Shown here one piece after another: positions 12,935 to 50,988 of a stretch of DNA of 64,000 nucleotides. Positions within the stretch are counted from its first letter, which is position 1; each line of letters begins with the position of its first letter. Made by a program: the position numbers and the translations under genes. This DNA is from Rhodospirillaceae bacterium (GTDB lineage: Bacteria > Pseudomonadota > Alphaproteobacteria > UBA828), in contig PBDG01000009.1 in NCBI GenBank assembly GCA_002717225.1, positions 76,563-140,562 on the forward strand. The letters run 5' to 3'. A model generated the notes under the pieces. It searched no databases and was not told where the DNA came from. It saw nothing but the letters and a program-made list of their open reading frames with translations.

Positions 12935-12953
12935 AGAGCCGAAAGTACAGGCG

Positions 12954-21334: not shown

Positions 21335-21336
21335 CT

Positions 21337-23827: not shown

Positions 23828-23835
23828 ATGTCCGG

Positions 23836-24597
23836 TTACTCCTCTTTTTGCAGCGTCGATCGGTCAGGCTGCCACGGTAGGGCGCGGCGGAGAGCGTTAT
23901 CGATGACGAAATAGATCAGCACAGCGAAGATGGCTAAAGTGAACAAGGCGGCAAACATCAGATCAGCTTGTAGACGACCATTGGCATGCAGCATGAGGTA
24001 GCCGAGACCAGCGCTGGAGCCGACCCATTCACCGACAACTGCGCCAATAGGCGCAACAGCAGTGGCGACACGCAAACCGGAAGCAAGCGCCGGGAGCGCA
24101 GCAGGTATGCGAATATGAAGGAGCATCGTCCAGGGACTCGCGCCCATAGTTCGTGCTAGGTCAGTCCAGCCTGGATCGGTGCGTCTCAGGCCGTCGAAAA
24201 ATCCAGCGGCGACCGGAAAATAGATTATAAGCACAGCCATCGCCACTTTGGAAGCGATACCATATCCGAGCCACAGTACCAAGATCGGTGCAAGCGCGAA
24301 AACCGGCACCGCCTGACTTGCGACAAGAACTGGCAACAACCAGCGCTGCGCAGGCCGAAAATAGGCGAGCACAAGAGCGCTGAAAACGCCAAGTATAGTG
24401 CCGCAGAGAAGACCGAGGGTGATCTCCAACAAGGTTACGCCGGCATGGCCAAGGATCGCCATATGATTGGTCCACCAAGCAATGGCGACATCAGCGGGGG
24501 CCGGCAGAATGAAATGTGGTGCGCCGGTTAGCCAAACGATTATTTGCCATAGCAGGATCAAACCGGCAGCAATGATCAGCGGGCGAAAATAGCACAT
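23836..24597 (-). CDS. ABC transporter permease, NitT/TauT family
   Basis: 6-TM hydrophobic profile with an EAA-like loop, lying between the ATPase and SBP genes. Confidence 0.75.
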   Translation of the reverse strand: MCYFRPLIIAAGLILLWQIIVWLTGAPHFILPAPADVAIAWWTNHMAILGHAGVTLLEITLGLLCGTILGVFSALVLAYFRPAQRWLLPVLVASQAVPVFALAPILVLWLGYGIASKVAMAVLIIYFPVAAGFFDGLRRTDPGWTDLARTMGASPWTMLLHIRIPAALPALASGLRVATAVAPIGAVVGEWVGSSAGLGYLMLHANGRLQADLMFAALFTLAIFAVLIYFVIDNALRRALPWQPDRSTLQKEE

Positions 24598-25442
24598 TAA
24601 AAACCCGCCTCCGCTGCACCGAGCCGGCTTAGCAGTTCAGCATGGTGAGTAAGAAATTCAACATCTGCGGGATCGCGTGGGGTTTTACCGACGGGCGACG
24701 GCACCTCGGTAAGTTGCGCCGGTCGACCGGACATAATGAAGATGCATTCACCGAGGCGGAGTGCCTCCATCGGGTCATGGGTAACGAGCAGGATGGTGCG
24801 CCCGCGTAGGAGCTTGGTGGCAAGCTCCTGTAAACGCAGGCGAGTGACGGCATCGAGAGCAGAAAAGGGCTCGTCCATCAGCACCGTCGCACGTGCCTCC
24901 ATCAGAGTACGGGCGAGAGCAACACGCTGACGCATGCCACCAGAGAGCGCAGCTGGACGGGCATGCGCGTAGTTGTCTAGGCCCACCCTAGCGAGAAGGT
25001 CGCGGGCACGAGAACGATCTGGCGTATCGCTACGCAGACGCTGACCAAGAATTACATTGCCGAGTGCGTCGAGCCAGGGCAGCAGCAGGTCCTGCTGAGC
25101 CATATAGGCAGGTGGAGTAACAGCCCGATCAGAAACCTGATCACCGCTCACTATGAATTTGACTGATCCGCCGCCTTCGACCACCTCCAGGCCAGCGATC
25201 AGGCGCAGCAAGCTCGATTTGCCGACACCCGAGGGACCAAGAAGGACACTCACTCGCCCGGCTGGCAGTTCCAGGTCTAAATCATGAAAAAGAACAGAAC
25301 CCTCATAACTCAGATTGACCCGTGACAAACGGATCGCGGGTGGCGGTGAGAGGGGCTGAAAAAACTTTTCGCTGTTTGTCACATTCCCAGTTCCTACGCC
25401 GGCATTACCCGGGTCAGGTGTCGGGGTCGTTGGCAGCGCCAA
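24597..25442 (-). CDS. ABC transporter ATP-binding protein, NitT/TauT family
   Basis: Walker A GPSGVGKSS, signature LSGGMRQRVALARTL, and Walker B LLMDEPFSALD. It also has an N-terminal Pro/Thr-rich extension of about 35 aa. Confidence 0.85.
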   Translation of the reverse strand: MALPTTPTPDPGNAGVGTGNVTNSEKFFQPLSPPPAIRLSRVNLSYEGSVLFHDLDLELPAGRVSVLLGPSGVGKSSLLRLIAGLEVVEGGGSVKFIVSGDQVSDRAVTPPAYMAQQDLLLPWLDALGNVILGQRLRSDTPDRSRARDLLARVGLDNYAHARPAALSGGMRQRVALARTLMEARATVLMDEPFSALDAVTRLRLQELATKLLRGRTILLVTHDPMEALRLGECIFIMSGRPAQLTEVPSPVGKTPRDPADVEFLTHHAELLSRLGAAEAGF

Positions 25443-25623
25443 CCTCTCAGCATAATTAGCTCCCCCCGAGGAGACTCAAAATATGTCTGACAGCTGAGGT
25501 TAGCGCAAGGAGGAAAACCTCGTATTGACTTGGAAGAGTGGACCGTTTTTTAGATCGCCTAGTGCAAACCGAGGGCAACCGTATTACAAACTCATGGTCT
25601 TCTGTTGCAATATTCAATAGGCT

Positions 25624-26790
25624 GTGATGGACTTTCTCACACAAGACCAGGAAGCGCTCGACGAAACCATCTCACGAATCTGCGCAGATTTCGGCGACGA
25701 TTACTGGCTGGCGCGGGATACGGACGGGAACTATCCGGAAAAGTTCGTTGCCGCTATTGCCGACGGCGGCTGGCTTGGCATCGCCATGCCAGAGGCACAT
25801 GGTGGTGCCGGTCTCGGCGTCACTGAAGCGGCCCTCATGATGCGTCGCATCGCCCAGTCAGGGGGCGGCTTCGCTGCCGCGTCCTCAGTGCATATAAATA
25901 TTTTTGGGCCCCATCCGATCGTCAAATACGGTACGCCCGAACAACAGGCGCGCTTGTTGCCGCCGCTGATCCAGGGCCGCGACCGCACCTGCTTCGGTAT
26001 TACAGAGCCCAATGCGGGCCTTGACACTGGCGCGATAGAGACCCGCGCCGAGTGGGACGGCAGTCATTATGTGGTGCATGGCCAAAAACTCTGGACATCC
26101 ACCGCCCAGCGGGCCAGCAAAATTATGCTGCTCGCCCGTACCGAGGGCAAGGATATCGTCGCCAAAAGCACCGACGGCCTCTCCCTGTTCTACACTGACC
26201 TCGACCAGGCTCATGTCGAAATACGGGAGATCGCCAAGATGGGCCGCAAGGCAGTGGATTCCAACGCACTCTTTATTGACGGCCTGAAAATTTCGCGTGC
26301 CGATTTAATTGGCGAGGAAGGTGAGGGTTTCCACTGCCTCCTCGACGGCCTAAACCCTGAGCGCATATTAATCGGCGCCGAGGCAATCGGGTTGGGGCGC
26401 TGTGCACTCACTAAAGCAGTGAACTACGCCCGTGAGCGCGAAGTATTTGGCCGGCCTATCGGCCAGAATCAGGCTATCCAGCACCCTCTAGCCGAAGCTT
26501 GGGCGGAGCTGGAGGCAGCTGATTTGATGGTGTTCAAGGCAGCACGGCTCTACGACGCAGGTGAGGCTTGCGGCGCGGAAGCCAATGCTGGGAAACACCT
26601 TGCTGCCGAAGCGGCTCACAAAGCTTGCGAACGCGCCGTCCTCACCCTTGGCGGCATGGGTTACGCCAAAGAATATCACGTCGAACGCTATTTGCGCGAA
26701 AGCTATATCGCCCGCATCGCGCCGGTAAGCAGAGAAATGATTCTCAATTTCATCGCCGAACGGGTCTTGGATTTACCACGCTCTTATTAG
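25624..26790 (+). CDS. Acyl-CoA dehydrogenase family protein
   Basis: 388 aa with ACAD blocks (GITEPNAGLDTG, ...GEEGEGF..., the C-terminal helical domain and LGGMGY). Confidence 0.85.
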   Translation: MMDFLTQDQEALDETISRICADFGDDYWLARDTDGNYPEKFVAAIADGGWLGIAMPEAHGGAGLGVTEAALMMRRIAQSGGGFAAASSVHINIFGPHPIVKYGTPEQQARLLPPLIQGRDRTCFGITEPNAGLDTGAIETRAEWDGSHYVVHGQKLWTSTAQRASKIMLLARTEGKDIVAKSTDGLSLFYTDLDQAHVEIREIAKMGRKAVDSNALFIDGLKISRADLIGEEGEGFHCLLDGLNPERILIGAEAIGLGRCALTKAVNYAREREVFGRPIGQNQAIQHPLAEAWAELEAADLMVFKAARLYDAGEACGAEANAGKHLAAEAAHKACERAVLTLGGMGYAKEYHVERYLRESYIARIAPVSREMILNFIAERVLDLPRSY

Positions 26791-26914
26791 GCTCAGTTGA
26801 AACCGCCCCTGCCCAACACCCGCAGCCGCTCTTCCCCCCAACCTAATAGGCGTGATCCCTTCGCCATTAAGCAAACACTACGTTGCCAACAATTACGTCC
26901 GTTCGAAGTTTTCT

Positions 26915-28930
26915 CTATGCGACCCGAAGTGTCGGCGTTTCGTTACGCGCCTCGCCGGGAGCGTTCCAGTGGGACGCGGTCCGACGCTTCAGCATATCTC
27001 GGAATTGCTGGGTCGTTTTTGTCAGCAACTCGCCGGTACCCCAATCTACGATAACTCCATACTGGCGGATAAGATCAAGAGTATCGAGTTCCTTGGCGCG
27101 ATATTTTGCCGCAATCCCCTCGGCATCCTCATCCAGCCAAAGATGGCGGTTGTCCCGGATATAAGTGCGCTTAGCCTCGGTTTCAGTCTCGTCAACCTCA
27201 TATTCCGCAAGATCAGCGTCCACTTCACGTACGATTACACCATAATCTTTTGCTGCCCGCGAAATGGATACATAGCCCTCGCGCACATCGTCGCACACAG
27301 CCTGAATATCACGTTCCAGAGGATCACCAAGCCCGCCGCCGCCAGCTGAGGGCCTTGTCAGCACATCGCCGGATTCGACTGGTACACCAGAAAATAACGA
27401 GCCAAGATAACGTTCGCCCTGGCTGCCAGGATTGACCCAGACGCCATGCGGGATCGACGGCAAGCCACCCCATAAGCCCCAGGTGACCGAGCGCTCTCGA
27501 TCGCAGCAATAGGAAACTACGGAGCGTTCCGCGTCGGTCAAGGTGACCCCCTTCTCCACGCCCATCCCACCGCGCGAAGAGCCGGGGCCGCCAGAATCGA
27601 CGATCAACTCATGCTCGGTGGTAACCACAGGAGCAAGGCGCTCCTGGCCCTCGAAAGGCTGGGTGCCAAGTTGAACACCGAAAACCGGCCCGGAGGCAGC
27701 CCAGCCGTCGCGCCCGTTACGCGCGCCCCAGCCGCCGACCATCCAGTCGTACCACATGAAATAGGGTTGCCCCTCCTTGCGCCCATCGCGCCCACCGATG
27801 AGCAGGTATTCGAGATTAAAGGTACACGCCATCGCACGTTCAGGCAGAATCTCAGCCCACAACTCGAATACTGAGTTCATGATTTTCTCAAATGGCCCCG
27901 AACAAAACCCTGCGACCGGGGTTGGCCAATTAGCGTTGACTACCGAACCCTCTGGGCCAAGATCAACAGTAACCACCCGGTAAAAACCTGAATTGAGCGG
28001 GATGTCCGGCGACTGCATCTTGGTACCCGCAACAATCGCTGCGAATGCGCCGCCATAGCAACAATTGAGGAAGGTTGAGATCGTTTTCGGATGCGAATTC
28101 GAGAGGTCGTAATGCACCGAATCTCCATCGATGGTCATTTTGATGCGGATTGGTATAAGCCCTTCACCCTGCACAGGGTCCACGTCGATATAATCTTCTG
28201 TCTCCCAAACGCCGTCGGGCAGCTTCGCGATCCGCTGACGAGTGAGAGTCTCAACATAATCTTGAACCTCTCGGAATGATGTCTGGATCACCTCAACGCC
28301 GTATTTATCACAAAGGCGACAGATTTCTTTTTCCGCGATATTACATGCTTCAGCCTGGGCTTGTAGATCACCGATAATGTCGTCCGGAGCGCGGGTGTTG
28401 CTGGCGATGAGCTCAGCTACGTCAGAGAGGTAGACACCTTTGCTATATACCCGAACAGGCGTGATGCGCAGGCCCTCCGCCATGTGATCGAGCGCGTTCA
28501 CGTTGAACGAGCCAGGCACCGCGCCGCCTACATCGGCCCAATGACCGTTTGCCTGGGCAAATCCGAGATGGATATCCTTGTAGAAGATCGGGCGCACGAT
28601 GCGAGTATCATTGAAATGGGTGCCGCCCTGATAGACGTCGTTGACGACAAATGTATCACCGGGGTGCACATCGTCACCGAACTTATTAATCACGGCCTGT
28701 GCGGTGTAATGCAACGTTCCCACGTGAGCTGCAATATCGCCGCTTCCCTGCATAACCGTATTACCCTCCGTATCGCAAATGGCAGAGGAGAAGTCGCGTG
28801 ACCAGATGACGAAGGAATAGCAGGTCCGGAATATCTGCTCCGCCATTTGATCTACGATGTTGACATAGGCGTTTTTCAGAACCTCAAAGGTAACGGGATC
28901 CAGGGTGTAACCTTCTTTATTTGCACTCAC
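26915..28930 (-). CDS. Hydantoinase B / oxoprolinase / acetone-carboxylase alpha-like subunit (HyuB family) with a C-terminal extension of about 120 aa
   Basis: HyuB N-terminal block DPVTFEVLKNAYVNIVDQMAEQ and C-terminal GGGGLGDPLERD. Start re-assigned to GTG 28930, which has an AAGGAGA SD 7 nt upstream. This removes a 32-nt overlap with hyuA that the ATG at 28981 would create. Confidence 0.8.
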   Translation of the reverse strand: MSANKEGYTLDPVTFEVLKNAYVNIVDQMAEQIFRTCYSFVIWSRDFSSAICDTEGNTVMQGSGDIAAHVGTLHYTAQAVINKFGDDVHPGDTFVVNDVYQGGTHFNDTRIVRPIFYKDIHLGFAQANGHWADVGGAVPGSFNVNALDHMAEGLRITPVRVYSKGVYLSDVAELIASNTRAPDDIIGDLQAQAEACNIAEKEICRLCDKYGVEVIQTSFREVQDYVETLTRQRIAKLPDGVWETEDYIDVDPVQGEGLIPIRIKMTIDGDSVHYDLSNSHPKTISTFLNCCYGGAFAAIVAGTKMQSPDIPLNSGFYRVVTVDLGPEGSVVNANWPTPVAGFCSGPFEKIMNSVFELWAEILPERAMACTFNLEYLLIGGRDGRKEGQPYFMWYDWMVGGWGARNGRDGWAASGPVFGVQLGTQPFEGQERLAPVVTTEHELIVDSGGPGSSRGGMGVEKGVTLTDAERSVVSYCCDRERSVTWGLWGGLPSIPHGVWVNPGSQGERYLGSLFSGVPVESGDVLTRPSAGGGGLGDPLERDIQAVCDDVREGYVSISRAAKDYGVIVREVDADLAEYEVDETETEAKRTYIRDNRHLWLDEDAEGIAAKYRAKELDTLDLIRQYGVIVDWGTGELLTKTTQQFRDMLKRRTASHWNAPGEARNETPTLRVA

Positions 28931-28949
28931 GGTCCTCTTCTCCTTCTCT

Positions 28950-31004
28950 TCAGCTTTGCGCCAAGGGCACGTCGATAACAATCGTCAGGGAGGGATCGAC
29001 CTCCGCCTTCAGTCCGGGTGGAATAAGAACGGTTGAATCAAGCTGTTCGATGATCGCCGGTCCTTCCACCACGGCGCCGGCCTTCAATTTATCCCGATCA
29101 TAAACCGGTGTTTTGATCGACTCCGGTGCTTCGTCAAATACTACATCTCGCTCAGAATCTGGCTCTGGTGGCGTACCATCCAGATCATGCTCAGCAAATT
29201 CTGCTTTCGGCGTTTGGCCGGTGGCGGTGACAGTGAGACGGTAAACTTCGACGGGTGCATCGGGACGGGAGTAATTGTGCTCGCGACCATGTTCCTCATG
29301 GAATGACGCAGCCGCCTCATCAAGCGAGGTAATATTCTCGCCAACCTCTATCGACATAGCGCGCCATTGACCAAGATAGCGCATATCGACGTGGCGCTGA
29401 AAAGACATGCGGTCTTCTGTTACTCCTTCATGAGAAAGATGCTCACGGCCCTCGGCCTCCAGTTCCTGGAACGCGGCATCGACTTCCGCCATATCTACGT
29501 CTTCGAGTGCGCGCAAATACATGCGCGAGATATCATGCTTGATATCGACCAATAGGCAACCAAGCGCGGAGGTCACCCCAGGCGCTGGCGGAACCAACAC
29601 GGTGGGAATCGAAAGGTCTCGGGCCAGCGCGACACCGTGGAGCGGCCCCGCGCCACCAAAGGTCACCAAGGCAAAATCGCGAGGATCATAGCCGCGTCGG
29701 ATCGAAACTAGTCGAACCGCATCGGCCATATTAGCGTTCGCTACTTTGAGGATCGATACCGCTGCCTCTTGCAATGACAGACCGAGGGGTTCGGCAACCA
29801 CGCGGTTAATCGCCTCGGCGGATAGCGATTTATCAAGCGCAACCGCGCCACCGGCGAGGCGGTCGCTGAGGCGGCCAAGAACCACATTGGCATCACAATT
29901 TGTTGGTTCAGAACCGCCACGGCCATAGCAGGCCGGGCCGGGCGTCGAACCGGCGGATTGCGGCCCGTTGCGCAACGAGTTTGCCTCATCAATCCAGGCC
30001 AGTGAACCGCCACCTGCACCAATTGTCAGCACCTCGATGCTGGGGAAACAGATTGGATAGCCATACTCAATATACCAATCTGTGGTAACGCGCAGATTGC
30101 CCCGATCACACAGGGAAACATCTGTACTGGTGCCCCCCATATCAAGGCTAATGGAGTTTTCGTATCCAGCACGCTCTGCAACGAAGCGGCTAGCAATAGC
30201 GCCCGCCGCAATACCGGAAGCAGCCAACCGGGCGGGAAATTTTGACGCACCCTTCCCGGTCATCATGCCGCCACCAGAATGGAGTAGCAATACATCTTCC
30301 TTATAGCCACCCTCAGCCATCCGCTCTTCCAAGCGGGTCGTGTATTCACCGACGACGGGGGCGAGCACCGCATTGGCGACGGTGGTAGAAAAGCGCTCGT
30401 GTTCGAAGATTTCCGGCATGATTTCGCTTGAGAGCGAGATGTTCGCATCCGGAAGCTCTTCTTTGAGAATATCACGCATGCGCTCTTCATTAACAGGACT
30501 TGCGAATGCATTCGCGAAGCAAACAGCAATAGTTTTTACGCCCCGTTTGCGAATGATACGCGCTACTTCACGTGCCTCTTTTTCGTCGACCGGTTCCAAA
30601 ACCTTGCCCGCATAATCGATGCGCTCGCTAACCACTAAACGATTGCGGCGCGGAATATATGGCGGAGCCATTTCCTTATAGGTATCCCAAAGATCATCGC
30701 GCGTTCCGCGACGGATCTCGATAACGTCGCGGAAGCCCTTGGTGGTAACCATAATCGCTGGAGGGAAGTTACGCGTAATCAGTGCGTTGGTAGAAAGGGT
30801 CGTTCCGTGCGAAAAGAGCACCACATCCTTCAAATCAACGCCTGCCGCCGAAATGCCCGCCAACACCCCGTCGATAGGGTCGGGAGTAGTCGGAGATTTA
30901 GCAACATGGATTTTTCCCGTGGCTTCATCGAGTACGCAAACGTCGGTAAACGTGCCACCCACATCACAAGCTACTCTAACCGCCGCACCCGCATTATTGT
31001 TCAT
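28950..31004 (-). CDS. Hydantoinase A / oxoprolinase / acetone-carboxylase beta-like subunit (HyuA family)
   Basis: N-terminal VACDVGGTFTDVCVLD (ASKHA ATPase phosphate-1 motif), a length of 684 aa, and a second DMGGTSTDVS motif. Confidence 0.85.
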   Translation of the reverse strand: MNNNAGAAVRVACDVGGTFTDVCVLDEATGKIHVAKSPTTPDPIDGVLAGISAAGVDLKDVVLFSHGTTLSTNALITRNFPPAIMVTTKGFRDVIEIRRGTRDDLWDTYKEMAPPYIPRRNRLVVSERIDYAGKVLEPVDEKEAREVARIIRKRGVKTIAVCFANAFASPVNEERMRDILKEELPDANISLSSEIMPEIFEHERFSTTVANAVLAPVVGEYTTRLEERMAEGGYKEDVLLLHSGGGMMTGKGASKFPARLAASGIAAGAIASRFVAERAGYENSISLDMGGTSTDVSLCDRGNLRVTTDWYIEYGYPICFPSIEVLTIGAGGGSLAWIDEANSLRNGPQSAGSTPGPACYGRGGSEPTNCDANVVLGRLSDRLAGGAVALDKSLSAEAINRVVAEPLGLSLQEAAVSILKVANANMADAVRLVSIRRGYDPRDFALVTFGGAGPLHGVALARDLSIPTVLVPPAPGVTSALGCLLVDIKHDISRMYLRALEDVDMAEVDAAFQELEAEGREHLSHEGVTEDRMSFQRHVDMRYLGQWRAMSIEVGENITSLDEAAASFHEEHGREHNYSRPDAPVEVYRLTVTATGQTPKAEFAEHDLDGTPPEPDSERDVVFDEAPESIKTPVYDRDKLKAGAVVEGPAIIEQLDSTVLIPPGLKAEVDPSLTIVIDVPLAQS

Positions 31005-31274
31005 TTAAGTCGCCCCTCCCGAAAAACATCGTGAACACTGTAAAATTGATGGTATTTGCAATAGCTTCTCCCCACACTTCAACTCTTCAAAAGGTCTCTA
31101 GGTTAGCAAATTTTGCGGTAACTTAGTATCCGACACAGAGCATGTCCACGACAACACTCATTAATAATTTAATGTTTTTCCACGCTCGACAAGTGCGGTT
31201 ACATACGGCAAGAATTTACGGCTGGCCGACTGCGGCCACAAATTATTTTGATGTCAGAGCGAAAGAGGTGCCGC

Positions 31275-33386
31275 ATGGCGAGCTATCTTTGCGGAATCGA
31301 TATCGGTGGTACTTTTACCGATTGTGTTATCGTCGACGGAGCGGGTGCCGTCACCACTGCTAAGGCTCCGTCCACTCCGCATGATTTTGCCAGAGGTGTT
31401 CAAGACGCTCTGAAAGCCGCCAGCGGCAAATTGGATCTAGAATTAGACGAACTCTGTTCCGAAATCACCATGCTGAGCCATGGCACCACGGTTGGAACTA
31501 ACGCTATCATCCAGAAGCGCGGCGCCAAAGTTGGACTAATCACCACGCGCGGCCATAACGATGTAATCCACATCATGCGTGGCTCGCGCGGCCTCACCGG
31601 TAACGAGATTCGCCTGGTTGTGCATATCCCCGAAAGCCAGAAGCCAGACCCGATCATTCCCAAACGTCTGATCGAGGGTGTCTCAGAGCGAGTCGACTGC
31701 TTCGGCAAAGTCATCGTCAAGCTTAATGAAGAGGAGGCCGAGGCCGCGATCCGCCGCCTTCTGGAAAAAGACGTTGAAGCCATCGCTGTCTGCTTCCTTT
31801 GGTCATTCCTCGCCCCACAGCACGAGGCGCGGGTAAAGGAAATGATCGCCGATATCGCGCCCAATATGTTCGTCACCACCTCGCACGAGCTGGTCCCGAA
31901 ATGGGGCGAATATGAGCGTACCGCTGCAGTGGCGCTTAACGCTTATATTGGCCCACTCACCACCGGCTATATCGCCGGCGTAGCAAGCGACGTAGAGGGT
32001 CTCGGTTATCATCAACCGTTGCAAATCACGCAATGTGCTGGTGGCACCATTTCGGTCAACCGCGCAATGTCAGCGCCCTTACTAACCCTTGATTCCGGAC
32101 CGGTCGCCGGCGTCACTGGCTCGCAATATGCCGGCGGACTGATGGGCTATGACAATATCATTACCACTGACATGGGCGGAACCTCCTTTGATGTCGGCAT
32201 AATTCACGATGGCAAACCAGCCTTTTCCTACACTAGCCTAGTTCATCAATATGCCTATTATCTCTCCAAGGTAGATATTCAGACCATCGGCGCGGGCGGC
32301 GGCTCCAAGGCTTGGATCGATGAAACCTCAGGGATGCTACGCGTCGGCCCAGAAAGCGCTGGAGCGGCGCCCGGACCCGCCTGTTATGGTCGCGGCGGCG
32401 ATATTGCAACAGTAACCGACGCGGACCTACTGCTCGGCTATCTTGACGCGGAAAATTTTGCTGGTGGTTCCCTCACACTCGACCGTGCAGCAGCAGAAGC
32501 AGCGATCAGAAAGATTGCAGACCCTCTGGGGCTTAGCCAGCTTGAAGCCGCCGCTGGCATCGTCAAGATTGCTGAATTCCAAATGGCCGACCTCATTCGC
32601 AAGGTGACCATCCAGAAGGGATTTGATCCGCGAGATTTTGTGCTATTTGCTTTCGGCGGCGCTGGTCCAGTTCATGCCGGCGTGTTCGCCAAGGAGCTCG
32701 GTGTCTCAAAGGTTATCGTACCGCAGCGCGAGACCGCTTCGGTCTGGTGTGCCTTTGGTGCTGCGGCGGCAGACGTTCTACATGTTCATGAGCGGGTTAA
32801 CATGATGCGCTCACCCTTCGATGTCGTCGAATTGAACAACGTGCTCGGAGAATTGGAGAACCGCGCTAAAGCAGAATTGACAGCGGATGAAATCCTGCCT
32901 GAACGCCAGCACCTTCGCTTCGCCCTCGACATGCGCCACAAGGGGCAGATCAACGAAGTCGAGGTAGAAATTTCAGGGTCGTCCTTAGCAGAAGTCGATT
33001 TGCCTAAACTACGCGACGCCTTCGTCGGGCAATATGAACGCCAATATGGCCAGGGCGCCTCGTTGCCCGGAGCGCGCCTAGAAATCGTCACCTTCCGCTG
33101 CCGCGCCGCGGCAGATACAGCCAAACCACGCCTGACGCGAGCCGACAAAATGACCGCTACCATCGATGGTGCTGCGTTACGACCGGCGCGCTTAGTCTTT
33201 TGGACTGAATATAGCGAGACAATCGATACGCAAGTGTTCAACGGCGAGAAGCTCGCCCCTGGCAACGGTGTGTCCGGCCCGGCGATTGTCGAGACAGCGG
33301 ATACCACGGTTGTGCTTCATCCAGAACAAACTCTTGCAGTCGATGCGTTCGGAAATTTCGAACTCACGCTCGCAGCATCCAAATAG
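31275..33386 (+). CDS. Hydantoinase A family subunit (HyuA), second paralog
   Basis: GIDIGGTFTDCVIVDG and DMGGTSFDVG motifs. Start taken at ATG 31275, which has an AAAGAGG SD. Confidence 0.85.
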   Translation: MASYLCGIDIGGTFTDCVIVDGAGAVTTAKAPSTPHDFARGVQDALKAASGKLDLELDELCSEITMLSHGTTVGTNAIIQKRGAKVGLITTRGHNDVIHIMRGSRGLTGNEIRLVVHIPESQKPDPIIPKRLIEGVSERVDCFGKVIVKLNEEEAEAAIRRLLEKDVEAIAVCFLWSFLAPQHEARVKEMIADIAPNMFVTTSHELVPKWGEYERTAAVALNAYIGPLTTGYIAGVASDVEGLGYHQPLQITQCAGGTISVNRAMSAPLLTLDSGPVAGVTGSQYAGGLMGYDNIITTDMGGTSFDVGIIHDGKPAFSYTSLVHQYAYYLSKVDIQTIGAGGGSKAWIDETSGMLRVGPESAGAAPGPACYGRGGDIATVTDADLLLGYLDAENFAGGSLTLDRAAAEAAIRKIADPLGLSQLEAAAGIVKIAEFQMADLIRKVTIQKGFDPRDFVLFAFGGAGPVHAGVFAKELGVSKVIVPQRETASVWCAFGAAAADVLHVHERVNMMRSPFDVVELNNVLGELENRAKAELTADEILPERQHLRFALDMRHKGQINEVEVEISGSSLAEVDLPKLRDAFVGQYERQYGQGASLPGARLEIVTFRCRAAADTAKPRLTRADKMTATIDGAALRPARLVFWTEYSETIDTQVFNGEKLAPGNGVSGPAIVETADTTVVLHPEQTLAVDAFGNFELTLAASK

Positions 33387-33396
33387 GGATACAATT

Positions 33397-35688
33397 ATGC
33401 CCCGCATCAGCCAAATCACCGATACCACATTCGACGGTATCAACAATCCCTATGTGCCAAAAAAGGATCTTGACATTTCACCCAGTCTCAAACTGCACCG
33501 CGAGTGGGATGAAACCTTGGACCCGGTCACCTACGAGGTGATCCGCCACAATCTATGGAACATCAATGAAGAGCATGGCGCTACAATCCAGCGAATATCT
33601 GGTTCGCCAGTGGCTATGTTCGCTCTCGACCTTAATCCCTCGATTCTTACCGAGGATGCCGAATTCGTCTATTTCGGCCCCTATATGCAATACATGTCCG
33701 GCGTCACCGACACGCAGGTGAAATGGATTCTCGAATACCGCTCGGACAATCCGGGAATCAAGCCGGGAGATATGTTTCTCGCCAACGACCCTTGGGTCGG
33801 CGCAGCACATCAGATGGACGTAATGCTGATCTGCCCGGTCTTCCATGGTGACAAACTGTTTTGCTGGATCACCAATTGCCTCCATCAATACGATATCGGC
33901 GGCATCACCCCGGGCAGCTTCTGCCCGGCGGCAGAGAGCGCGTTCGACGAGGGCATCCTTATCCCGCCGGTGAAAATTGTCGAGAACGACGTAGTGCGCA
34001 AGGACATTGAAGCACTTTATCTCCGCTCGTCACGCAAGCCAGAGATGGTAGCGCTAGATTTCCGCGCTCAACTCGCTGGCAACATGACCGCTAAGACGCG
34101 CATCAAGGCACTGATTGATCGCTACGGTGCCAAGACCGTAAAAAGCGTGATGAAGAAGGTGATCGATAATTCCGAAGCTGCCTTCCTTTCAAAGCTAAAG
34201 AAAATCCCCGACGGGGTGTGGCGCGACCGCACATATGTTGAGGCCTGCCGCCCTGGCGACCGGCGTACCCACCGGGTGCAGATCGCGCTCACCAAGAAGG
34301 GGGACAAGCTGATCTTCGACAATGAGGGTACCGCGCCGCAAGACGGCGCCATGAACGCAACCTATTCCGGGTGGCGCGGTTCGGTGATGGTTGCAATCAA
34401 CGAGCTCTTGAGTTGGGATCAATATTTTGCGGTCGGTGGCGCTTTGCGCCATATCGAATTTGACCCAGTCCCTGGTACGCTTAACTGTGCTGATTTTCCT
34501 GCATCGGTCTCCACCGCACCGACGCAATCAATGGAAATCTCGCTCTATCCAGCCTATAACATCATCTCCAAGATGCTATATTCCGATGAAGAGCTGCGGC
34601 AAGACATCATGGGCATCGGTGGGACCAGTCAATGGCCGACCACCATCTTCCGTGGTATTGATCAATGGGGCGAACGATACGGCTATATTTTGATTGACCC
34701 GATAGGTGGATCTATTGGCGCGTTTGCACAAGGTGACGGCATCAACACTGGTGGCCAGGCAAGGACGCCGATCGGCCAGTTGCCCAATGTCGAACACAAT
34801 GAGCAACTCTTTCCCCTCCTATTCCTTTACCGCAAGGAGCTACCGGATTCAGGGGGCGCCGGGAAGTTCCGGGGCGGTCTCTCCGCGGAAAGCTGTTTCA
34901 TCCCACACAACACTGATTTCATCACCCAGGATACGCTTTCCTCCGGCAACGCTATCCCGACTTCAACCGGTATGATGGGCGGCTATCCGTCCACCACCAA
35001 CGCTTATACTTTCATCCGAGAGAGCGACATCTTTCAGCGCATGAAGGAGTCTAGGCTAATCGAAGACAGCTCCGAAGTAGCAGGCAACCCCCAACATCTC
35101 GAGCTACGCCAGGAAAATTTTGTGCAAAATTCAGCGGACGTTTATGCCGTGCGATGGTCTGGTGGCGGCGGCTTTGGCGATCCACTGCAACGCGACATCG
35201 AAAGGATCGTTCATGACCTGGAGCATCTCAATATTACGCCAAAAGCGGCGCGCGAGATTTTCGGCGCAGTGCTTGACGAAAATGAACAGGTAGATGTGGC
35301 GGCAACGGAAGAGAATCGTAACAAGATCCGCAAAGAACGCCTTGAGCGCCTCAAAAATGGCCAGGTGCCACGCGACAGCCATGCAGGAGAGACAGCTTTC
35401 CCTGCTGGAGATAATCTCGCGGTCTATGGCTCCGGCGATACCGCACGCTGGGGCTGCGCCCACTGCACCGCCGACCTTGGACCGATTGGTGAGAATTTCA
35501 AGGATGCATGTCTACGCGATGACCGCCCAGTTTCAGACTCCAACCCGCTGGTGGGCGACCCGGCTGTCTTTATTGATGATGCGGTCAATTTTCGCCTGTT
35601 TTATTGCCCATCCTGTGGTAATCAGATCGACAATGAAATAGCTGTGACCAGCGACGCTGTACTTCGCGACATTGAATTGACCGTGTAA
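33397..35688 (+). CDS. Hydantoinase B family subunit (HyuB), second paralog, with a C-terminal Cys4 (CxxC...CxxC) extension of about 150 aa
   Basis: HyuB blocks DPVTYEVIRHNLWNINEEHG and GGGGFGDPLQRD. The tail carries WGCAHC (Cys codons at 35454 and 35464) and YCPSCG (35605, 35614). Start taken at ATG 33397, after the hyuA stop. Confidence 0.8.
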   Translation: MPRISQITDTTFDGINNPYVPKKDLDISPSLKLHREWDETLDPVTYEVIRHNLWNINEEHGATIQRISGSPVAMFALDLNPSILTEDAEFVYFGPYMQYMSGVTDTQVKWILEYRSDNPGIKPGDMFLANDPWVGAAHQMDVMLICPVFHGDKLFCWITNCLHQYDIGGITPGSFCPAAESAFDEGILIPPVKIVENDVVRKDIEALYLRSSRKPEMVALDFRAQLAGNMTAKTRIKALIDRYGAKTVKSVMKKVIDNSEAAFLSKLKKIPDGVWRDRTYVEACRPGDRRTHRVQIALTKKGDKLIFDNEGTAPQDGAMNATYSGWRGSVMVAINELLSWDQYFAVGGALRHIEFDPVPGTLNCADFPASVSTAPTQSMEISLYPAYNIISKMLYSDEELRQDIMGIGGTSQWPTTIFRGIDQWGERYGYILIDPIGGSIGAFAQGDGINTGGQARTPIGQLPNVEHNEQLFPLLFLYRKELPDSGGAGKFRGGLSAESCFIPHNTDFITQDTLSSGNAIPTSTGMMGGYPSTTNAYTFIRESDIFQRMKESRLIEDSSEVAGNPQHLELRQENFVQNSADVYAVRWSGGGGFGDPLQRDIERIVHDLEHLNITPKAAREIFGAVLDENEQVDVAATEENRNKIRKERLERLKNGQVPRDSHAGETAFPAGDNLAVYGSGDTARWGCAHCTADLGPIGENFKDACLRDDRPVSDSNPLVGDPAVFIDDAVNFRLFYCPSCGNQIDNEIAVTSDAVLRDIELTV

Positions 35689-35729
35689 TCGATTTTGGCT
35701 TTGACCTAGAGAATGCTAGGCTCGGGAAC

Positions 35730-36203
35730 ATGACAACGCAATTTTCGATTCTCACAATCGCAGCCGCCATGCTTGTGCTCGTCGCCTGCGGACGCGGCCC
35801 CGAACTCACAGCTAGCTCCGCACCTACGCAAATTGGCGACGACACGACTGCGGCGTTTCAGCCGATTGCCGATGTGCCGATCCCCGAGGGTGCACGGCTC
35901 GATAGCGAGCGCAGTTTAGTACTCGGCGGAGAATATAATTGGACCGGCCGCTTGGTTTTCATGGTCAGCGAGTCGCCAGCCGATGCTTACGCGCTCTACC
36001 ATCAGGAAATGCAGCGGTTCGGATGGCGGCTGATCACCAGCGTACAGGCCGAATCGAGCGTGTTGGCCTTTAACCAAGGCAAACGTGTGGCAACTATTCA
36101 AATTGAGGGCCGCACACTCTCGGGCGCAACCATCGCCATCACTATGTCGCCGCGTCACGAAGGGAGCAGTGACTCTGTCGATGTAACGCCACTCGGCGAA
36201 TAA
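35730..36203 (+). CDS. Hypothetical lipoprotein
   Basis: Signal peptide with lipobox LVAC|G (MTTQFSILTIAAAMLVLVACGRG). No recognisable catalytic motif. Confidence 0.5.
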   Translation: MTTQFSILTIAAAMLVLVACGRGPELTASSAPTQIGDDTTAAFQPIADVPIPEGARLDSERSLVLGGEYNWTGRLVFMVSESPADAYALYHQEMQRFGWRLITSVQAESSVLAFNQGKRVATIQIEGRTLSGATIAITMSPRHEGSSDSVDVTPLGE

Positions 36204-36224
36204 TTTTGGGAGAAGGAACATACG

Positions 36225-36299
36225 ATGAAAAAGCATTTCAACTTCTCCAATGGGCATAAATATCTGATTACGCGCTACACGCAAAACGTGCCCCAGTAA
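36225..36299 (+). CDS. Candidate 24-aa small ORF (MKKHFNFSNGHKYLITRYTQNVPQ) with a strong Shine-Dalgarno
   Basis: GGAGAAGG lies 7 nt upstream of the ATG. It sits in a 190-bp gap between the lipoprotein gene and the convergent hydratase gene. There is no homology support. Confidence 0.2.
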   Translation: MKKHFNFSNGHKYLITRYTQNVPQ

Positions 36300-36393
36300 T
36301 GTGAAGCACTAAAGCGTGATAATTAATCCTTTGGTATATTACGAGCAAAGCAGGCGTTAGTATCGCTCACTTCTTCCTCTGCAATAAATCCAA

Positions 36394-37182
36394 CTAATTG
36401 GTGAACCGGACACTCAGTTTGCCGAGGGTGCCAAAATCTGCCAGTACATCGTCATCCGGCCCAATTGACTGAGGCACGATGCAAGTACCAGTAGTGACTA
36501 TGTCTCCAGCGCGGAGTGCGCCACCTTGAGCGACGCGGTCGTTAGCAAGCCAGGCAAGGGCAATGCGTGGATCGCCCAGCACATTTGCACCGGTGCCATC
36601 CGCCACCTTTTTGCCGTTAATGTATAGGTGCGCACTATGAGCCGCCAGATCGAGATTTCGCCAGCATTCCGACACTGCGTCGCCGAGTACAAAAAATTCA
36701 GTACAGGCATTATCTGCGATCAGCTGAGGTGCGCCAACGTTGGTAAAATTTTCGTAGCGCGAATCCGGGATTTCAAGGCCACAATGAAGCGCCTTGGTCG
36801 CTGCCACTACATCCTCGGGCAAGTAGTCTCGCCCGCGTGCCGGCAGGTCCTCGCCGAGGAGAAAGACGAATTCCGCCTCAATCACCGCCATGTGCAAATG
36901 CGCCACCGGTAGCTCGGAACCCGCCCGGTGCATTTTGCCGGCGAGCAGACGGCCAGCGAGTGGCTTGTCAACGCCAATATGTTTCTGCCCGGCAGTACTG
37001 GTGGCGGCGATCTTCCAACCGATCGGCGGCCAACCAGTCAAATTCACGAGCGCTTCTTGCACCTCATAGCCTTCTGCTATGCTTGCTGGACGGCAAGCCT
37101 CTGGCAGAGACTTGATACGGCTATGACAGCTCCAATTATGCCAAATAATCGCAGCGGCTTCGCTTGCGCGCTCGTCTTCCAT
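36394..37182 (-). CDS. 2-keto-4-pentenoate hydratase / 2-oxo-hept-ene-dioate hydratase-like (MhpD/HpaH fold)
   Basis: 262 aa with the family's conserved acidic, metal-binding C-terminal half (GDIVTTGT..., EAEFVFLLG). Confidence 0.55.
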   Translation of the reverse strand: MEDERASEAAAIIWHNWSCHSRIKSLPEACRPASIAEGYEVQEALVNLTGWPPIGWKIAATSTAGQKHIGVDKPLAGRLLAGKMHRAGSELPVAHLHMAVIEAEFVFLLGEDLPARGRDYLPEDVVAATKALHCGLEIPDSRYENFTNVGAPQLIADNACTEFFVLGDAVSECWRNLDLAAHSAHLYINGKKVADGTGANVLGDPRIALAWLANDRVAQGGALRAGDIVTTGTCIVPQSIGPDDDVLADFGTLGKLSVRFTN

Positions 37183-37468
37183 TACGCACTCTTAGCGCAC
37201 CAGCGGACGGTGGACAAGCCGCGCTCGATTATCTTGAACAGCATCCGGAATCAACTCATTAAGATCATAATTTGCACTACCAACAGATTTTACTCTCGCG
37301 ACCTAAGTCTAGAATCCCACCGCCAAGATATATGCACATCCAACGTGGCCGAAAGGTTCTAATGGGAGGGAGAGGCAAAATCATTTGCAACAAATTCTGC
37401 CAGGCCGGCAACCACTGAATTAATGGTAACGATGGGGGTGCTCTTCTCTAATATGAGGAGCACTAATT

Positions 37469-40400
37469 CTACCGGTTTGCTGATTCTACCTTCGAGTTAA
37501 CATCGACGGCCAGTTGTCGTGCGACAAGCGTGGCATAAAGACCGCCTCTGGCGAGAAGACTGGCATGATCGCCTGCTTCTCGCACCTTACCATCCTCCAT
37601 AACGACGATCTGATCTGCATCACGCACAGTCGACAACCGGTGGGCTATAACAACGGTAGTGCGATCGACCATAAGCTCATCAAGAGCATGGCGCACAGCT
37701 TGCTCATTTAGCGCATCAAGATGCGAGGTAGCTTCGTCAAGAATAAGTATCGGTGCGTCCTTAAGGAAGGCACGAGCAATAGCGATTCGCTGGCGCTGAC
37801 CACCAGAAAGCCGCGTGCCGCGTTCGCCGACCTCCGTATCGAGGCCGTCAGGGAGGGCAGCTGTGAAATCCTCCAGCGCCGCACGGCGGATGGCGGCATC
37901 CACCTCGGTAGGACTCGCCTCCGGCCGAGCGATCAGTATATTGCCCCGGATGGTGTCGTTGAAGAGATAAGTGTCCTGAGCTACGAGGGCGATACGCCCG
38001 CGTAAATCATCGAGCCGCCACTCCTTGAGGTCCCGGCCATTCAGATTGACTACGCCTTCATCAGGATCCCAAAAACGCATCAAAAGATGAGCTAGCGTCG
38101 TCTTGCCCGCACCGGACGGCCCAACCAGAGCGAGTGTGCTTCCCGCCGACAAACTAAGGCTAACATTGTGGAGTGCTGGATCTCTAATGCCAGGATAGGT
38201 GAAGCTAACATTGTTGAGATCCAGTGCCGCACTGCCACTATGCGCCTCGGGCGCTATCGCCCTACCGTCGGTTACCGTCACTCGCTCGCTATGTACACCA
38301 TGCAATCGCCTTGTGCCGCCGAGGGTATCAGCAAGCTGACGGCCGATATTGGCAATTTCCGATACTGGGAGGAAAGCAGCCATGGCCAAGAGTGTGAGAA
38401 GCGGTAGCATGGTACGATCCAAATCGCCCGAATTCACCAAGGACGCGCCAGTGATGACCACGGCAAGGCCACCGAGGCCCGTGACTGTCTCTACTAGCGC
38501 GGTTTGGACTGTGAGATCGCTGAAAAATGGCAGCCGAAGCGAATGGTGGCGGCGCACCAAGTCAATCAATTGTTTGCCGCGTCGTGCCTCCTGTCGAAAA
38601 GCCATAATTTCCGCCAGGCCCTGCAGAGTATCGACCATATGGGCGTTTAGTGCTCCCTGCGCCTCACTCGCACCTGAGGCAAGCCGATCAACCCGCTTGC
38701 GCATGAGAAACGGCGAAAGTGCGATCAATGCAAGGAAAGGGACCAACGCAATGGCCATTGGCCAACCGAAAAAGAGGACCACGGCAACCACCGCGGCTGG
38801 AACTAACACCGCGACAAATGCAGGAGCTACGGTATGAGCAAAAAAGAATTCGACATTCTCGATATCTTGGGTCGCCATAGCCACCAAATCACCGCTTCGT
38901 CGGCGCAAGAGATAAGCCGGCGCTAAAGCGTCAAGCTTGGCGAATAACGCGATGCGCATTTGTGTCAACAAGCGGAACGCCATGTCATGCGCGACCCAAG
39001 ATTCAAGCCAATGGAGGATGCCAGCAAAAGGTGCAAGGGCGTATAACGCGATCAGGAGATCACCAAACTGCTCACCATTGCGTACCGCTGCCACGACGAA
39101 AGCGCTTAACACACCCACACCGATCAGAGCTACCACACGGGCAACACCGAGAAGGAAAGCGAGGCCGACGCGCTTGCGCACCGGATGGACGAGGTGCAAA
39201 AGCAATCCGGCAGCACGCCACCAACCCATCTCACCAGCGCGTAATATCTCATCGGACGGCTGTAGCCGGTCTAACTGCATATCCTCGAGTGGCGACGCAG
39301 TTGCGTCTGGTGCAACATTCACTGTGGTTACATTTTTGATCTTATTTACACCGGAGACCGCCTCCTCCACCTGGCCTGACATCAATCGAGCATAGACACC
39401 ACTCTTTTTCATAAGCGATTGGTGGCTACCCTCTTCAACCAGTGCACCCTCATAGAGCACCAGGATACGGTCTGCATCAATCACGCTGGATAAGCGATGA
39501 GCAAGAATCAAAACGGTCCGACCATGCATCAACCGGTCGAGGGCCTGTTGAATGACCGCTTCGTTTTCCGCATCCACGGCCGAAAGAGCTTCATCGAGCA
39601 CCAGAAAGGGCGCATCACGCAAAAGCGCCCGAGCGATAGCGATTCGCTGACGTTGGCCTCCCGAAAGCCTAACGCCGCGTTCACCAATCACCGTCTTATA
39701 GCCTTGAGGCAAGCGCAAGATGAAATCATGCGCATTGGCGGCACGCGTTGCTGCTTCGATTTCCTCATCGGTTGCGTCTGGCTTACCAAAGCGAATGTTT
39801 TCTTCTGCAGTACCGTGAAACAGGTAGGTGTCTTGGTGCACCACGGCAAAATGCTCACGGATTTGGGCAAAACTGAGGTCACGAAGATCCTTACCACCAA
39901 GGAAAACGCGCCCGTTCTCGGGCTCGTAGAGTCTGAGTGCAAGGCGAACGATAGAGGATTTTCCACATCCACTCGGGCCAACTATACCGATGCGTTCGCC
40001 AGCCTTAATCTCGAAGCTAAGGTCCCGGTGCGCAGGCTTCCGACCGCCAGGATACGAAAAGCATACGCCCTCAAAGCGAAGCGAAGCCTCCAGTCCTCCC
40101 TTTGGCAGCAGAGCGTTTGGTGTGTCACACACCAGGGGTTTCTCGCCGAGAAGCGCGAACAGGCCTTCAGCAGCCGACTGACCGAGCATACCTTGATGCA
40201 ACAGGATTCGGAGATCACGCATTGGGCGGAACAGTTCGATCCCCATCATGAGAACAATTAGCAGCACGCCAATGTCTATTTCTCCGTCCACCACCCTCCA
40301 GGCGCCAATGCTTAGCGCCAGTGCCGCACCTATAGCGATACCACCATCAGTAATACCGCGCGACAGCGAATTGGTTGCCAGTACCCACATGGTGCGCCGG

Positions 40401-44250: not shown

Positions 44251-44252
44251 AG

Positions 44253-46934: not shown

Positions 46935-46980
46935 GGCTGAACCTTTAGGGCTTCCTGTTTGAGGTTATGCTGTTCCGCTT

Positions 46981-50661: not shown

Positions 50662-50938
50662 AGGTCGGGGAGAGTGGTTTCGACTGGTTCAGGCGGGAGC
50701 ATAGACACGATAAACGAAGAGATGCAGAAAATTTTGACTGATTAGCCACGAATTGAACTACCGATCTATCTCCACCAAGCAAAGTAAGGCCAACTAATTC
50801 CCGTATTTATCTCTGTCGCAGTTTGCTTGGGAAAATGCACAATCTTTAGCAAAGACACAAAGTTTTAGCGGTTTTCTGGGACAAATCCACAATTCATTTA
50901 AGGAAACTTTATTCCTTAAATTCAATTGCACGGAACGT

Positions 50939-50966
50939 GGCGAGGGGCTAGTCTCGCGCCCTCGCC
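50939..50966 (+). promoter_or_regulatory. Stem-loop GGCGAGGG-N12-CCCTCGCC in the 5' leader, 23 nt upstream of the amidotransferase start codon
   Basis: Read directly: ggcgaggg gctagtctcgcg ccctcgcc is an 8-bp perfect stem. It is followed by the GAAGGGG SD and the ATG at 50989, and lies inside a 330-bp AT-rich leader. Confidence 0.3.
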
Positions 50967-50988
50967 AAATCGGCGAAGGGGAATATCT

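Follow-up and report, generated by a model that had tools for sequence, protein, structure and literature searches.

Two pairs of hyuA and hyuB genes stand back to back in a 64,000-nucleotide stretch of DNA from a Rhodospirillaceae bacterium (GenBank assembly GCA_002717225.1, contig PBDG01000009.1, positions 76,563 to 140,562; the whole stretch is referred to as the window), and the question raised by this locus is whether the four gene products form one enzyme or two. Few members of the hydantoinase/ketone-carboxylase superfamily, to which they belong, have been characterized. The analysis led, with a probability of roughly 0.6, to the joint reading that two separate two-subunit enzymes are encoded, of which pair 2 (hyuA2-hyuB2) would be ketone-carboxylase-like and pair 1 (hyuB1-hyuA1) would belong to the hydrolase branch, and that they were made neighbors by an insertion of about 4.4 kb.

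Three types of such enzymes have been distinguished: the hydrolase (Hyd) type, encoded by hydAB without a gamma gene; acetone carboxylase (Acx), encoded by acxAB followed by acxC (gamma); and acetophenone carboxylase (Apc), encoded by apcABCD(E) and containing an additional alpha-prime subunit (PMC5214803). Acx and Apc contain the gamma subunit and no Hyd complex does, and according to the authors of the Apc structure, function is not yet readable from sequence in this superfamily (PMC5214803).

Gene Structure of the Two Pairs

All four hyu open reading frames (ORFs) were intact, with pair 1 on the minus strand and pair 2 on the plus strand in divergent orientation, and the starts of hyuA1 and hyuA2 were separated by exactly 270 bp (31005-31274). 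The coordinates of all features are listed in Table 1. An earlier reading of this DNA, made without database searches (the sequence-only reading), had placed the four genes and the 270-bp divergent region exactly and had named the right superfamily. The long intact ORFs gave Pfam matches far beyond chance, with Hydantoinase_B at 4e-147 for HyuB1 and 6e-103 for HyuB2, and with Hydant_A_N, Hydantoinase_A, and Hydant_A_C in HyuA1 and HyuA2 (1e-84 and 8e-86). The subunit lengths given at that time held for HyuA1, HyuB1, and HyuB2 (684, 671, and 763 aa), while the 704 aa of HyuA2 became 703 aa when counted from the ATG behind the ribosome-binding site GAAAGAGG.

The hyuB1 ORF could also start at TTG 28981 (688 aa); the 671-aa product with a GTG start was preferred because orthologs range from 666 to 674 aa. 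In both pairs, the hyuA stop codon and the hyuB start lay within about 20 nt of each other. The ASKHA phosphate-binding motifs D[VI]GGTFTD and DMGGTS were read in both HyuA proteins (in HyuA1 as DVGGTFTD and DMGGTSTD). The motif ERxDxxG was likewise present in both (SERIDYAG and SERVDCFG), the first residue being Ser and not Arg/Lys.

Both HyuB proteins are longer than the Hyd-type beta subunit (approximately 580 aa), as had been noticed from the sequence. The two C-terminal extensions, however, differ in nature, and that of HyuB2 is a fused gamma subunit which had been overlooked. This fused gamma is the most informative feature of the locus.

Table 1. Features of the locus and its surroundings, in coordinates of the window.
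Feature	Position	Strand	Description
hyuB1	26915-28930	-	HyuB (beta) subunit of pair 1, 671 aa, GTG start
hyuA1	28950-31004	-	HyuA (alpha, ATP-binding ASKHA) subunit of pair 1, 684 aa
hyuA2	31275-33386	+	HyuA (alpha) subunit of pair 2, 703 aa, ATG behind GAAAGAGG
hyuB2	33397-35688	+	763 aa; beta part 33397-35397 (aa 1-667)
Fused gamma domain of hyuB2	35398-35688	+	aa 668-763, predicted zinc ribbon of acetone-carboxylase-gamma/ApcB type
Lineage-specific segment with pair 1	~26791-31180		~4.4 kb, from ACAD stop codon to conserved hyuA2 leader
Conserved hyuA2 leader	31180-31274	+	Alignment with seven relatives; includes ribosome-binding site GAAAGAGG
Promoter-like TCGACA-N18-AAGAAT	31186-31215	+	Consensus scan
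GC-rich hairpin in hyuA2 leader	31223-31238	+	Sequence varies among relatives, pairing kept
Acyl-CoA dehydrogenase (ACAD)	25624-26790	+	Pfam ACAD domains
157-aa lipoprotein	35730-36203	+	Lipobox LVAC, directly downstream of hyuB2; no Pfam match
FAA-hydrolase-family (MhpD/HpaH-like) hydratase or decarboxylase	36394-37182	-	Pfam FAA_hydrolase; convergent with pair 2
TPP riboswitch (RF00059)	25374-25476	-	58.4 bits against a gathering score of 54.3
ABC importer	22874-25442 (operon 22874-25373)	-	ATPase, permease, NMT1/THI5-like binding protein

Independence of the Two Pairs

HyuB1 and HyuB2 shared 25% identity and HyuA1 and HyuA2 shared 35%, values by which a recent duplication of the pairs was ruled out. 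Among 80 loci fetched with HyuB2, orthologs of pair 1 (96% identity) were found beside pair 2 only in L001 and L002, which represent the lineage of the window itself. In three relatives with 87-89% identity (L004, L005, and L007), the gene of the acyl-CoA dehydrogenase (ACAD) was followed after 118-230 bp by hyuA2, without pair 1. Upstream, the flanks common to the window and these three loci comprised ACAD and the MMPL, LolA-like, and 413-aa genes; downstream, they comprised the lipoprotein, the FAA-hydrolase-family (FAH) gene, and the ABC exporter.

From the side of pair 1, 84 loci were examined, consisting of 80 metagenome loci fetched with HyuB1 and four from protein look-ups (Aminobacter, Pseudonocardia, and Kiloniellales). 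In these loci, pair 2 gave just paralog-level cross-matches (24-37% identity) reflecting pair 1 itself. Three loci, L088-L090, belong to the lineage of the window, but their contigs end before pair 2.

The segment that carries pair 1 was delimited at about 26791-31180 because the homology upstream of hyuA2 starts at about 31180 and the syntenic relatives lack pair 1. It looks like a lineage-specific insertion between the ACAD gene and the hyuA2-hyuB2 promoter, gain of the segment being the presumed direction of the event. No terminal direct or inverted repeats were found at its flanks, and its composition showed no marked change.

The juxtaposition of the two pairs is a matter of chance and specific to this lineage. 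A four-subunit complex was rejected on synteny, as each pair stands alone in relatives. That all four proteins form one Apc-like heteromer under a shared divergent promoter region, as the sequence-only reading had suggested by analogy with the two paralogous large subunits of Apc, is therefore extremely improbable. The genes are adjacent and divergent across 270 bp, Apc does use two HyuA paralogs (PMC5214803), and the arrangement was kept in L001, L002, and, as far as the contigs reach, L088-L090; however, each pair occurred alone in nearly all relatives, including the syntenic ones with 87-89% identity, translation of each hyuA is coupled to that of the hyuB in its own pair, the tree puts the pairs on different branches, and Apc has one beta subunit, not two. 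Two outcomes had been named beforehand as bearing on that proposal: orthologous pairs standing singly in relatives, which were found, and tight clustering with 5-oxoprolinases or N-methylhydantoinases, which was not observed.

A second HyuA/HyuB pair was also observed 7-10 kb from the pair-2 ortholog in seven gammaproteobacterial loci (L026, L030, L032, L066, L068, L069, and L080). It belongs to another subfamily, with 38-40% identity to HyuA1 and 29-32% to HyuB1, and clustering of different hyuAB pairs therefore recurs independently.

Predicted Beta-Gamma Fusion of HyuB2

Residues 668-761 of HyuB2 matched the Pfam family Acetone_carb_G, at 3.5e-9 within the whole protein and at 1.2e-10 for the domain alone, and the same domain matched NCBIfam ApcB at 1.6e-7. 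It aligned to the acetophenone carboxylase small subunit (5l9w_C) with both CxxC motifs included, and Foldseek matches of its AlphaFold model were 5l9w_C, 5svc_C, and 5m45_C. The zinc ribbon would be formed by C687-x2-C690 and C737-x2-C740, and all four cysteines were invariant in 42 family members. HyuB2 was recognized as a beta-gamma fusion on the basis of the Acetone_carb_G and ApcB matches, the 5l9w_C alignment, and the four invariant cysteines. Judged by these features, pair 2 has the alpha-beta-gamma make-up of ketone carboxylases, with gamma fused to the C-terminus of beta.

The metal tetrad D78/H138/D141/H163 of HyuB2 was invariant in the same 42 members, among which the mean column identity was 78%. 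Within the best 120 clusters and the best 80 genome loci, the family was at least 68-69% identical, and beyond it the next clusters dropped to about 43%. The taxa sampled were Alpha- and Gammaproteobacteria, SAR324, and Acidimicrobiales. The best matches of HyuB2 all came from uncultured aquatic and groundwater metagenome-assembled genomes (MAGs), with no named cultured strain among them. Of the 80 genome loci fetched with HyuB2, 56 had a close homolog of HyuA2 (59-92% identity), and in the loci examined, this homolog stood directly upstream of hyuB2.

A library-wide search with HyuB2 yielded 1285 clusters at 50% identity (E up to 1e-30). When 130 full-length representatives of clusters related to HyuB2 were scanned, 81 had the CxxC...CxxC tail; by this pattern, fusion of gamma to HyuB is common in nature. 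No description of gamma-fused HyuB proteins was found in the literature searched.

Two further arrangements were seen among the relatives of HyuB2. Single polypeptides combining HyuA and HyuB were represented by P0283 (1030 aa), P0286 (1430 aa), P0317 (1340 aa), and P0385 (1402 aa); P0283 carried the gamma-type CxxC...CxxC tail, and the pattern search gave none in the other three. Full-length HyuB2-gamma homologs (77-80% identical) without a HyuA within 10 kb occurred in L010, L012, L013, L016, L018-L020, L022-L024, and L044, with the match at about 10001-12290 in most of them. They form an alphaproteobacterial subclade. The homolog was located downstream of sucA-sucB-lpd in L010, L012, L013, L018, and L022, and in L010 it was followed by two class-III aminotransferase genes.

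Placement among Characterized Enzymes

An alignment of 144 sequences was assembled from both HyuBs of the window, family members, the 130 full-length cluster representatives, and four references taken from Protein Data Bank (PDB) alignments, and a neighbor-joining (NJ) tree was built from it. The HyuB1 family grouped with the caprolactamase subunit CapB and with N-methylhydantoinase (NMHase), at 33% identity to each. The HyuB2 family was placed inside a large, mostly gamma-fused radiation, with ApcD (28%) and Acx alpha (23%) outside it. In this tree, pair 1 is in the Hyd branch and pair 2 is elsewhere, so that the two lie on different branches.

Scores against PDB sequences followed the same division for the HyuB subunits. 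HyuB1 scored 280 bits with NMHase (7hk5), 268 with caprolactamase (6yra_B, CapB), 116 with ApcD, and 75 with Acx, and its best Foldseek matches were 9h03_A and 6yra_B. HyuB2 scored 184 bits with ApcD (5l9w_A), 117 with CapB, 112 with Acx alpha, and 111 with NMHase, and its best fold match was 5l9w_A (E 2e-27, TMt 0.69). For the HyuA subunits, phmmer yielded 471, 412, 310, and 230 bits for HyuA1 with NMHase, CapA, ApcC, and Acx beta, respectively, and 416, 425, 430, and 325 bits for HyuA2 in the same order.

NCBIfam equivalog scores were all far below the cut-offs for both pairs. For CapA/CapB (cut-off 1000), pair 1 reached 537/339 bits and pair 2 reached 578/158 bits. For ApcA/ApcB/ApcC/ApcD, the values were 277/31/450/220 bits against cut-offs of 1250/250/1500/1500, the ApcB, ApcC, and ApcD figures being those of pair 2. 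Because of these scores and the 23-33% identity to solved members, neither pair appears to be an ortholog of characterized 5-oxoprolinase, N-methylhydantoinase, caprolactamase, Acx, or Apc.

Metal ligands have been published for CapB (D41/H99/D102/H124), ApcD (D65/H123/D126/H148), and Acx (H150/D153/H175) (PMC8453981). Residues D46/H105/D108/H130 of HyuB1 and D78/H138/D141/H163 of HyuB2 aligned with these columns.

Compared with Apc of Aromatoleum aromaticum (5L9W, ApcA-D and ApcE), HyuB2 has the same D-H-D-H tetrad. In contrast, identity is 28%, and gamma is a separate subunit in Apc, its gene lying between two alpha genes, whereas in pair 2 it is fused to beta. Apc also has an alpha-prime paralog and epsilon; pair 2 has no dedicated alpha-prime, and no epsilon candidate adjoins it. 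HyuA1 is not an Apc-like alpha-prime, since the alpha-type motif is represented in it by its ERxDxxG core, it is coupled to a beta of its own, and most pair-2 loci lack it.

The comparison with AcxABC of Xanthobacter autotrophicus (5SVB, 5SVC, and 5M45) gave a common alpha, beta, and gamma composition and order (PMC5214803) and a similar fold (TM about 0.6), but an identity of only 23%. The HyuB-like subunit of Acx measures approximately 720-776 aa and the separate gamma approximately 165 aa, compared with a beta part of approximately 650 aa and a fused gamma of approximately 95 aa in HyuB2, and Asp78 of HyuB2 occupies the position of the gating/metal Glu89 of Acx (PMC8453981). HyuB2 was not within the Acx clade of the tree and scored 112 bits with Acx against 184 with ApcD.

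These differences bear on the proposal that pair 2 represents a genuine acetone carboxylase, orthologous to Acx and serving ordinary acetone catabolism. Although the composition agrees, with gamma after beta as in acxABC (PMC5214803), MAGs from marine and fresh waters contain the pair-2 family in abundance, marine bacteria have been proposed to carboxylate acetone (bioRxiv 10.64898/2026.08.16.745133), and a CoA-transferase A/B pair and a thiolase are encoded in the same window, this proposal is improbable in view of the 23% identity to X. autotrophicus Acx alpha, the position of Acx outside the HyuB2 clade, the shorter beta part (approximately 650 against 776 aa) and gamma (approximately 95 against approximately 165 aa), and the Asp in place of Glu89; moreover, no sigma-54 AcxR-type regulator adjoins pair 2. 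The order of pair 2 is thus of the Acx type with gamma fused, and its sequence is nearest to Apc beta.

Among the Hyd-type enzymes, CapAB of Pseudomonas jessenii (6YRA) resembled pair 1 in its alpha-beta composition, its tetrad, its tree branch, and its fold (Foldseek TMt 0.79). It differed in an identity of 33%, in lacking the extra conserved helical tail of HyuB1, and in that no aminotransferase neighbor was found at pair 1. The vicinal Cys410-Cys411 of CapB is not kept in HyuB1 (F417-G418). As a shared pocket feature, the Cys-Cys of CapB was rejected, as the invariant C475-C476 of HyuB1 sits at a non-equivalent position. The fused N-methylhydantoinase (7HK5 and 9H03; 1288 aa) was the top solved relative of HyuA1 and HyuB1 and the best fold match; unlike pair 1, it is a single A-B polypeptide, with approximately 31-33% identity and Gln at the fourth tetrad position in the alignment made here.

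Proposed Chemistry of Pair 2

By analogy with Acx and Apc, we infer that pair 2 is an ATP-dependent ketone carboxylase and a novel form within this kind of enzyme; the substrate is probably an aliphatic ketone. HyuA2 would phosphorylate the enol form of the ketone and/or bicarbonate with ATP. At the D78/H138/D141/H163 metal site of HyuB2, reaction of the activated species would then yield a beta-keto acid, which would be handed on to CoA-dependent enzymes.

In other lineages, recurrent neighbors of pair 2 were TetR (15 loci), enoyl-CoA hydratase (13), family III CoA-transferase (9), and thiolase-like, AMP-ligase, and ACAD genes (6 loci each). The SAR324 locus contained a cupin, a 3-hydroxyacid dehydrogenase-like gene, an AMP-ligase, and an enoyl-CoA hydratase. 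Assignment as a ketone carboxylase was favored because these neighbors fit a route from beta-keto acid to CoA ester to thiolase cleavage, as in acetone catabolism.

In the window, a plus-strand block at 5887-14500 encodes an acyl-CoA synthetase/CoA-ligase, a thiolase, a 3-hydroxyacyl-CoA dehydrogenase/enoyl-CoA hydratase (HADH/ECH), an ACAD, and a CoA-transferase A/B. Enzymes of these kinds are required for the use of a beta-keto acid, yet the block lies 17-25 kb from pair 2.

A different possibility is that both pairs are ATP-dependent amidohydrolases (lactamases or hydantoinases) and that the gamma of HyuB2 is merely a structural zinc ribbon. The gamma subunit sits away from the active sites and can be dispensed with for the integrity of the complex (PMC5214803), HyuA2 scored nearly equally with CapA, NMHase, and ApcC, HyuB2 shares with Hyd and Apc an Asp at the first metal/gating position, where Acx has Glu89 (PMC8453981), and one alphaproteobacterial subclade has a HyuB2 homolog beside two class-III aminotransferases. 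This possibility is rather unlikely, as no Hyd-type enzyme with a gamma subunit has been described (PMC5214803), the best sequence and fold match of HyuB2 is a carboxylase beta subunit, and the recurrent neighbors of pair 2 act on acyl-CoA and keto-acids, not on amines or nitrogen compounds.

Tail, Family, and Proposed Chemistry of Pair 1

Pair 1 consists of alpha and beta only, in hydAB gene order and without a gamma domain, and the metal tetrad of HyuB1 is D46/H105/D108/H130. The C-terminal tail of HyuB1 (approximately aa 596-671, with the helical portion at approximately aa 581-650; about 75-90 aa in all) was conserved throughout the HyuB1 family, with the invariant residues Y610, D619, R622, W630, G631, G633, and W655. 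It was predicted as confident helices (pLDDT, the predicted local distance difference test, of 83-95) and gave no match to Pfam at E up to 1.

The pair-1 family (62-92% identical) includes Alphaproteobacteria, with cultured Aminobacter, Mesorhizobium, Methylobacterium, and Methyloligella, and Actinobacteria such as Pseudonocardia; the orthologs in Aminobacter and Mesorhizobium are 79% identical. Recurring beside this family were UrtA/AmiC-like binding proteins, which scored below the UrtA cut-off (19 loci), regulators of the AmiR/ANTAR type (9 loci), and permeases and ATPases of the Liv/Urt type. In eight loci, a membrane protein weakly similar to cytosine permease was encoded directly downstream.

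When the regions upstream of the hyuA1 orthologs were compared, no shared leader was found across the family. Only L108, L116, and L146 had, between the promoter region and hyuA, a strong hairpin of terminator-like form (GCCACC...GGTGGC with a T run after it), which would be consistent with antitermination control by AmiR/ANTAR. The lineage of the window has neither such a hairpin before hyuA1 nor an AmiR gene.

The placement in the Hyd branch, together with the AmiC/AmiR and Urt-like neighbors, suggests by analogy that pair 1 may be an ATP-dependent hydrolase of a small cyclic amide sensed by an AmiC-type receptor; the neighbors are circumstantial support for such hydrolysis. As in caprolactamase and N-methylhydantoinase, a cyclic amide (a lactam or hydantoin-like compound) would be activated with ATP, and metal-assisted ring opening would follow, probably for nitrogen or carbon scavenging. 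Nothing on AmiC/AmiR-linked hydantoinases was found in the literature searched.

Little probability was assigned to pair 1 being a housekeeping 5-oxoprolinase or a canonical N-methylhydantoinase. The best solved relatives are indeed N-methylhydantoinase and a caprolactamase deposited as 'hydantoinase/5-oxoprolinase', and relatives of pair 1 are labeled 'N-methylhydantoinase B' by JGI, but identity is just 33%, pair 1 is accessory and absent from close relatives of the window lineage, its family has an extra conserved tail of approximately 75 aa, and the links of the family are to amide sensing of the AmiC/AmiR type and to Urt-like transport rather than to genes for glutathione or creatinine.

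Weighing of the Joint Reading

Several points weigh against the assignment of pair 2 to the ketone carboxylases and of pair 1 to cyclic-amide hydrolysis. The NJ tree is rough and its distances are saturated, although the fold searches agree with it, and both AlphaFold models are of moderate confidence (pLDDT 69 and 67). Identity of pair 2 to Acx alpha and Apc delta is just 23-28%. The gamma subunit is located at a distance from the active sites, and its direct part in carboxylation is unlikely (PMC5214803); it is therefore a correlate of carboxylase chemistry and no proof of it. Given the size and diversity of the gamma-fused clade (81 of 130 representatives), it is uncertain whether its chemistry is uniform.

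The genomic context carries similar reservations. The CoA-related neighbors of pair 2 were concentrated in related gammaproteobacterial loci, so that the counts are phylogenetically non-independent, and at other pair-2 loci the neighbors were unrelated. In the window, pair 1 has no AmiC/AmiR partner, and no AmiR/ANTAR domain was found in the window ORFs scanned with Pfam and NCBIfam. The Urt-like transporter at 43546-48219 was considered as a partner of pair 1 and rejected; because L005 has the transporter without pair 1, no specific link can be drawn between the two.

Leader of hyuA2 and RNA Elements

The region preceding hyuA2 is conserved among relatives and contains a promoter-like element and a GC-rich hairpin (Table 1). 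An invariant GCGGC could pair with GCCGC just before the hyuA2 ATG and might mask the ribosome-binding site. RNAalifold on this leader returned a possible pairing with the ribosome-binding-site region, with essentially no covariation. Rfam at E up to 1 over 25000-37500 detected only the thiamine pyrophosphate (TPP) riboswitch, and no ANTAR or other known RNA.

Neighboring Genes

The sequence-only reading had described the neighborhood as catabolic and had argued from it for a degradative carboxylase or ring-opening role. The ACAD and FAH genes were as described and are conserved near pair 2, whereas the supposed NitT/TauT importer is a ThiXYZ-type importer of thiamine precursors, unrelated to the hyu genes. 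This identification follows from the TPP riboswitch, which controls the operon. The TTG at 25442, annotated as the start of the ATPase gene, overlaps the TPP aptamer, and the true start must therefore lie further downstream. The importer operon was absent from L002, L004, and L005. A degradative role remains plausible. One of the three catabolic neighbors cited for it falls away.

ACAD was the immediate upstream neighbor of hyuA2 in L004, L005, and L007. The 157-aa lipoprotein was kept only in close relatives, with 58-80% identity in L001-L006 and L051. The FAH gene was found near pair 2 in L001, L003, L005, and L021, and its NCBIfam scores for dmpE/HpaH were far below the cut-offs.

Ahead of ACAD-hyuA2-hyuB2 and on the same strand, the region 18198-22578 encodes three proteins: an MMPL/RND-like transporter, a LolA-like one, and one of 413 aa that matches DUF1302 weakly (E 1e-3). 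These genes were syntenic in L004 and L005 and may act as a system, linked to pair 2, by which hydrophobic substrates are handled.

On the minus strand at 37469-41086, a 1205-aa protein comprises two complete ABC-exporter halves (transmembrane domain and ATPase, twice) that resemble MsbA and CydDC; identity in L005 was 81%. Further downstream, a plus-strand set at 50926-56376 consists of a GATase-domain protein, a GXGXG and Glu_synthase protein, and a Fer4_20/pyridine-nucleotide oxidoreductase, similar to glutamate synthase or N-methylglutamate synthase, with a LarA-like gene next to it (56566-57852).

Significance

The adjacency of two hyuAB pairs is no evidence for an Apc-like multi-paralog complex. 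Instead, the locus points to two well-defined and strongly conserved subfamilies, one beta-gamma-fused and carboxylase-like, the other tailed and of the hydrolase branch. The tailed family has cultured members (Aminobacter, Mesorhizobium, Methylobacterium, and Pseudonocardia), which makes genetics feasible.

Pair 2 is the more interesting of the two. The beta-gamma-fused family is widespread in uncultured aquatic Proteobacteria. A bolder extension, at present doubtful, is that HyuA2/HyuB2-gamma would represent a large uncharacterized clade of beta-gamma-fused carboxylases that fix bicarbonate onto acetone or other small ketones, and hence an unrecognized route, separate from AcxABC, by which ketones are consumed and CO2 is assimilated heterotrophically in oligotrophic waters. 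If the fused family does not carboxylate ketones, the rule that a gamma subunit marks a carboxylase would be broken; if it does, the finding would bear on marine ketone turnover and heterotrophic CO2 fixation.

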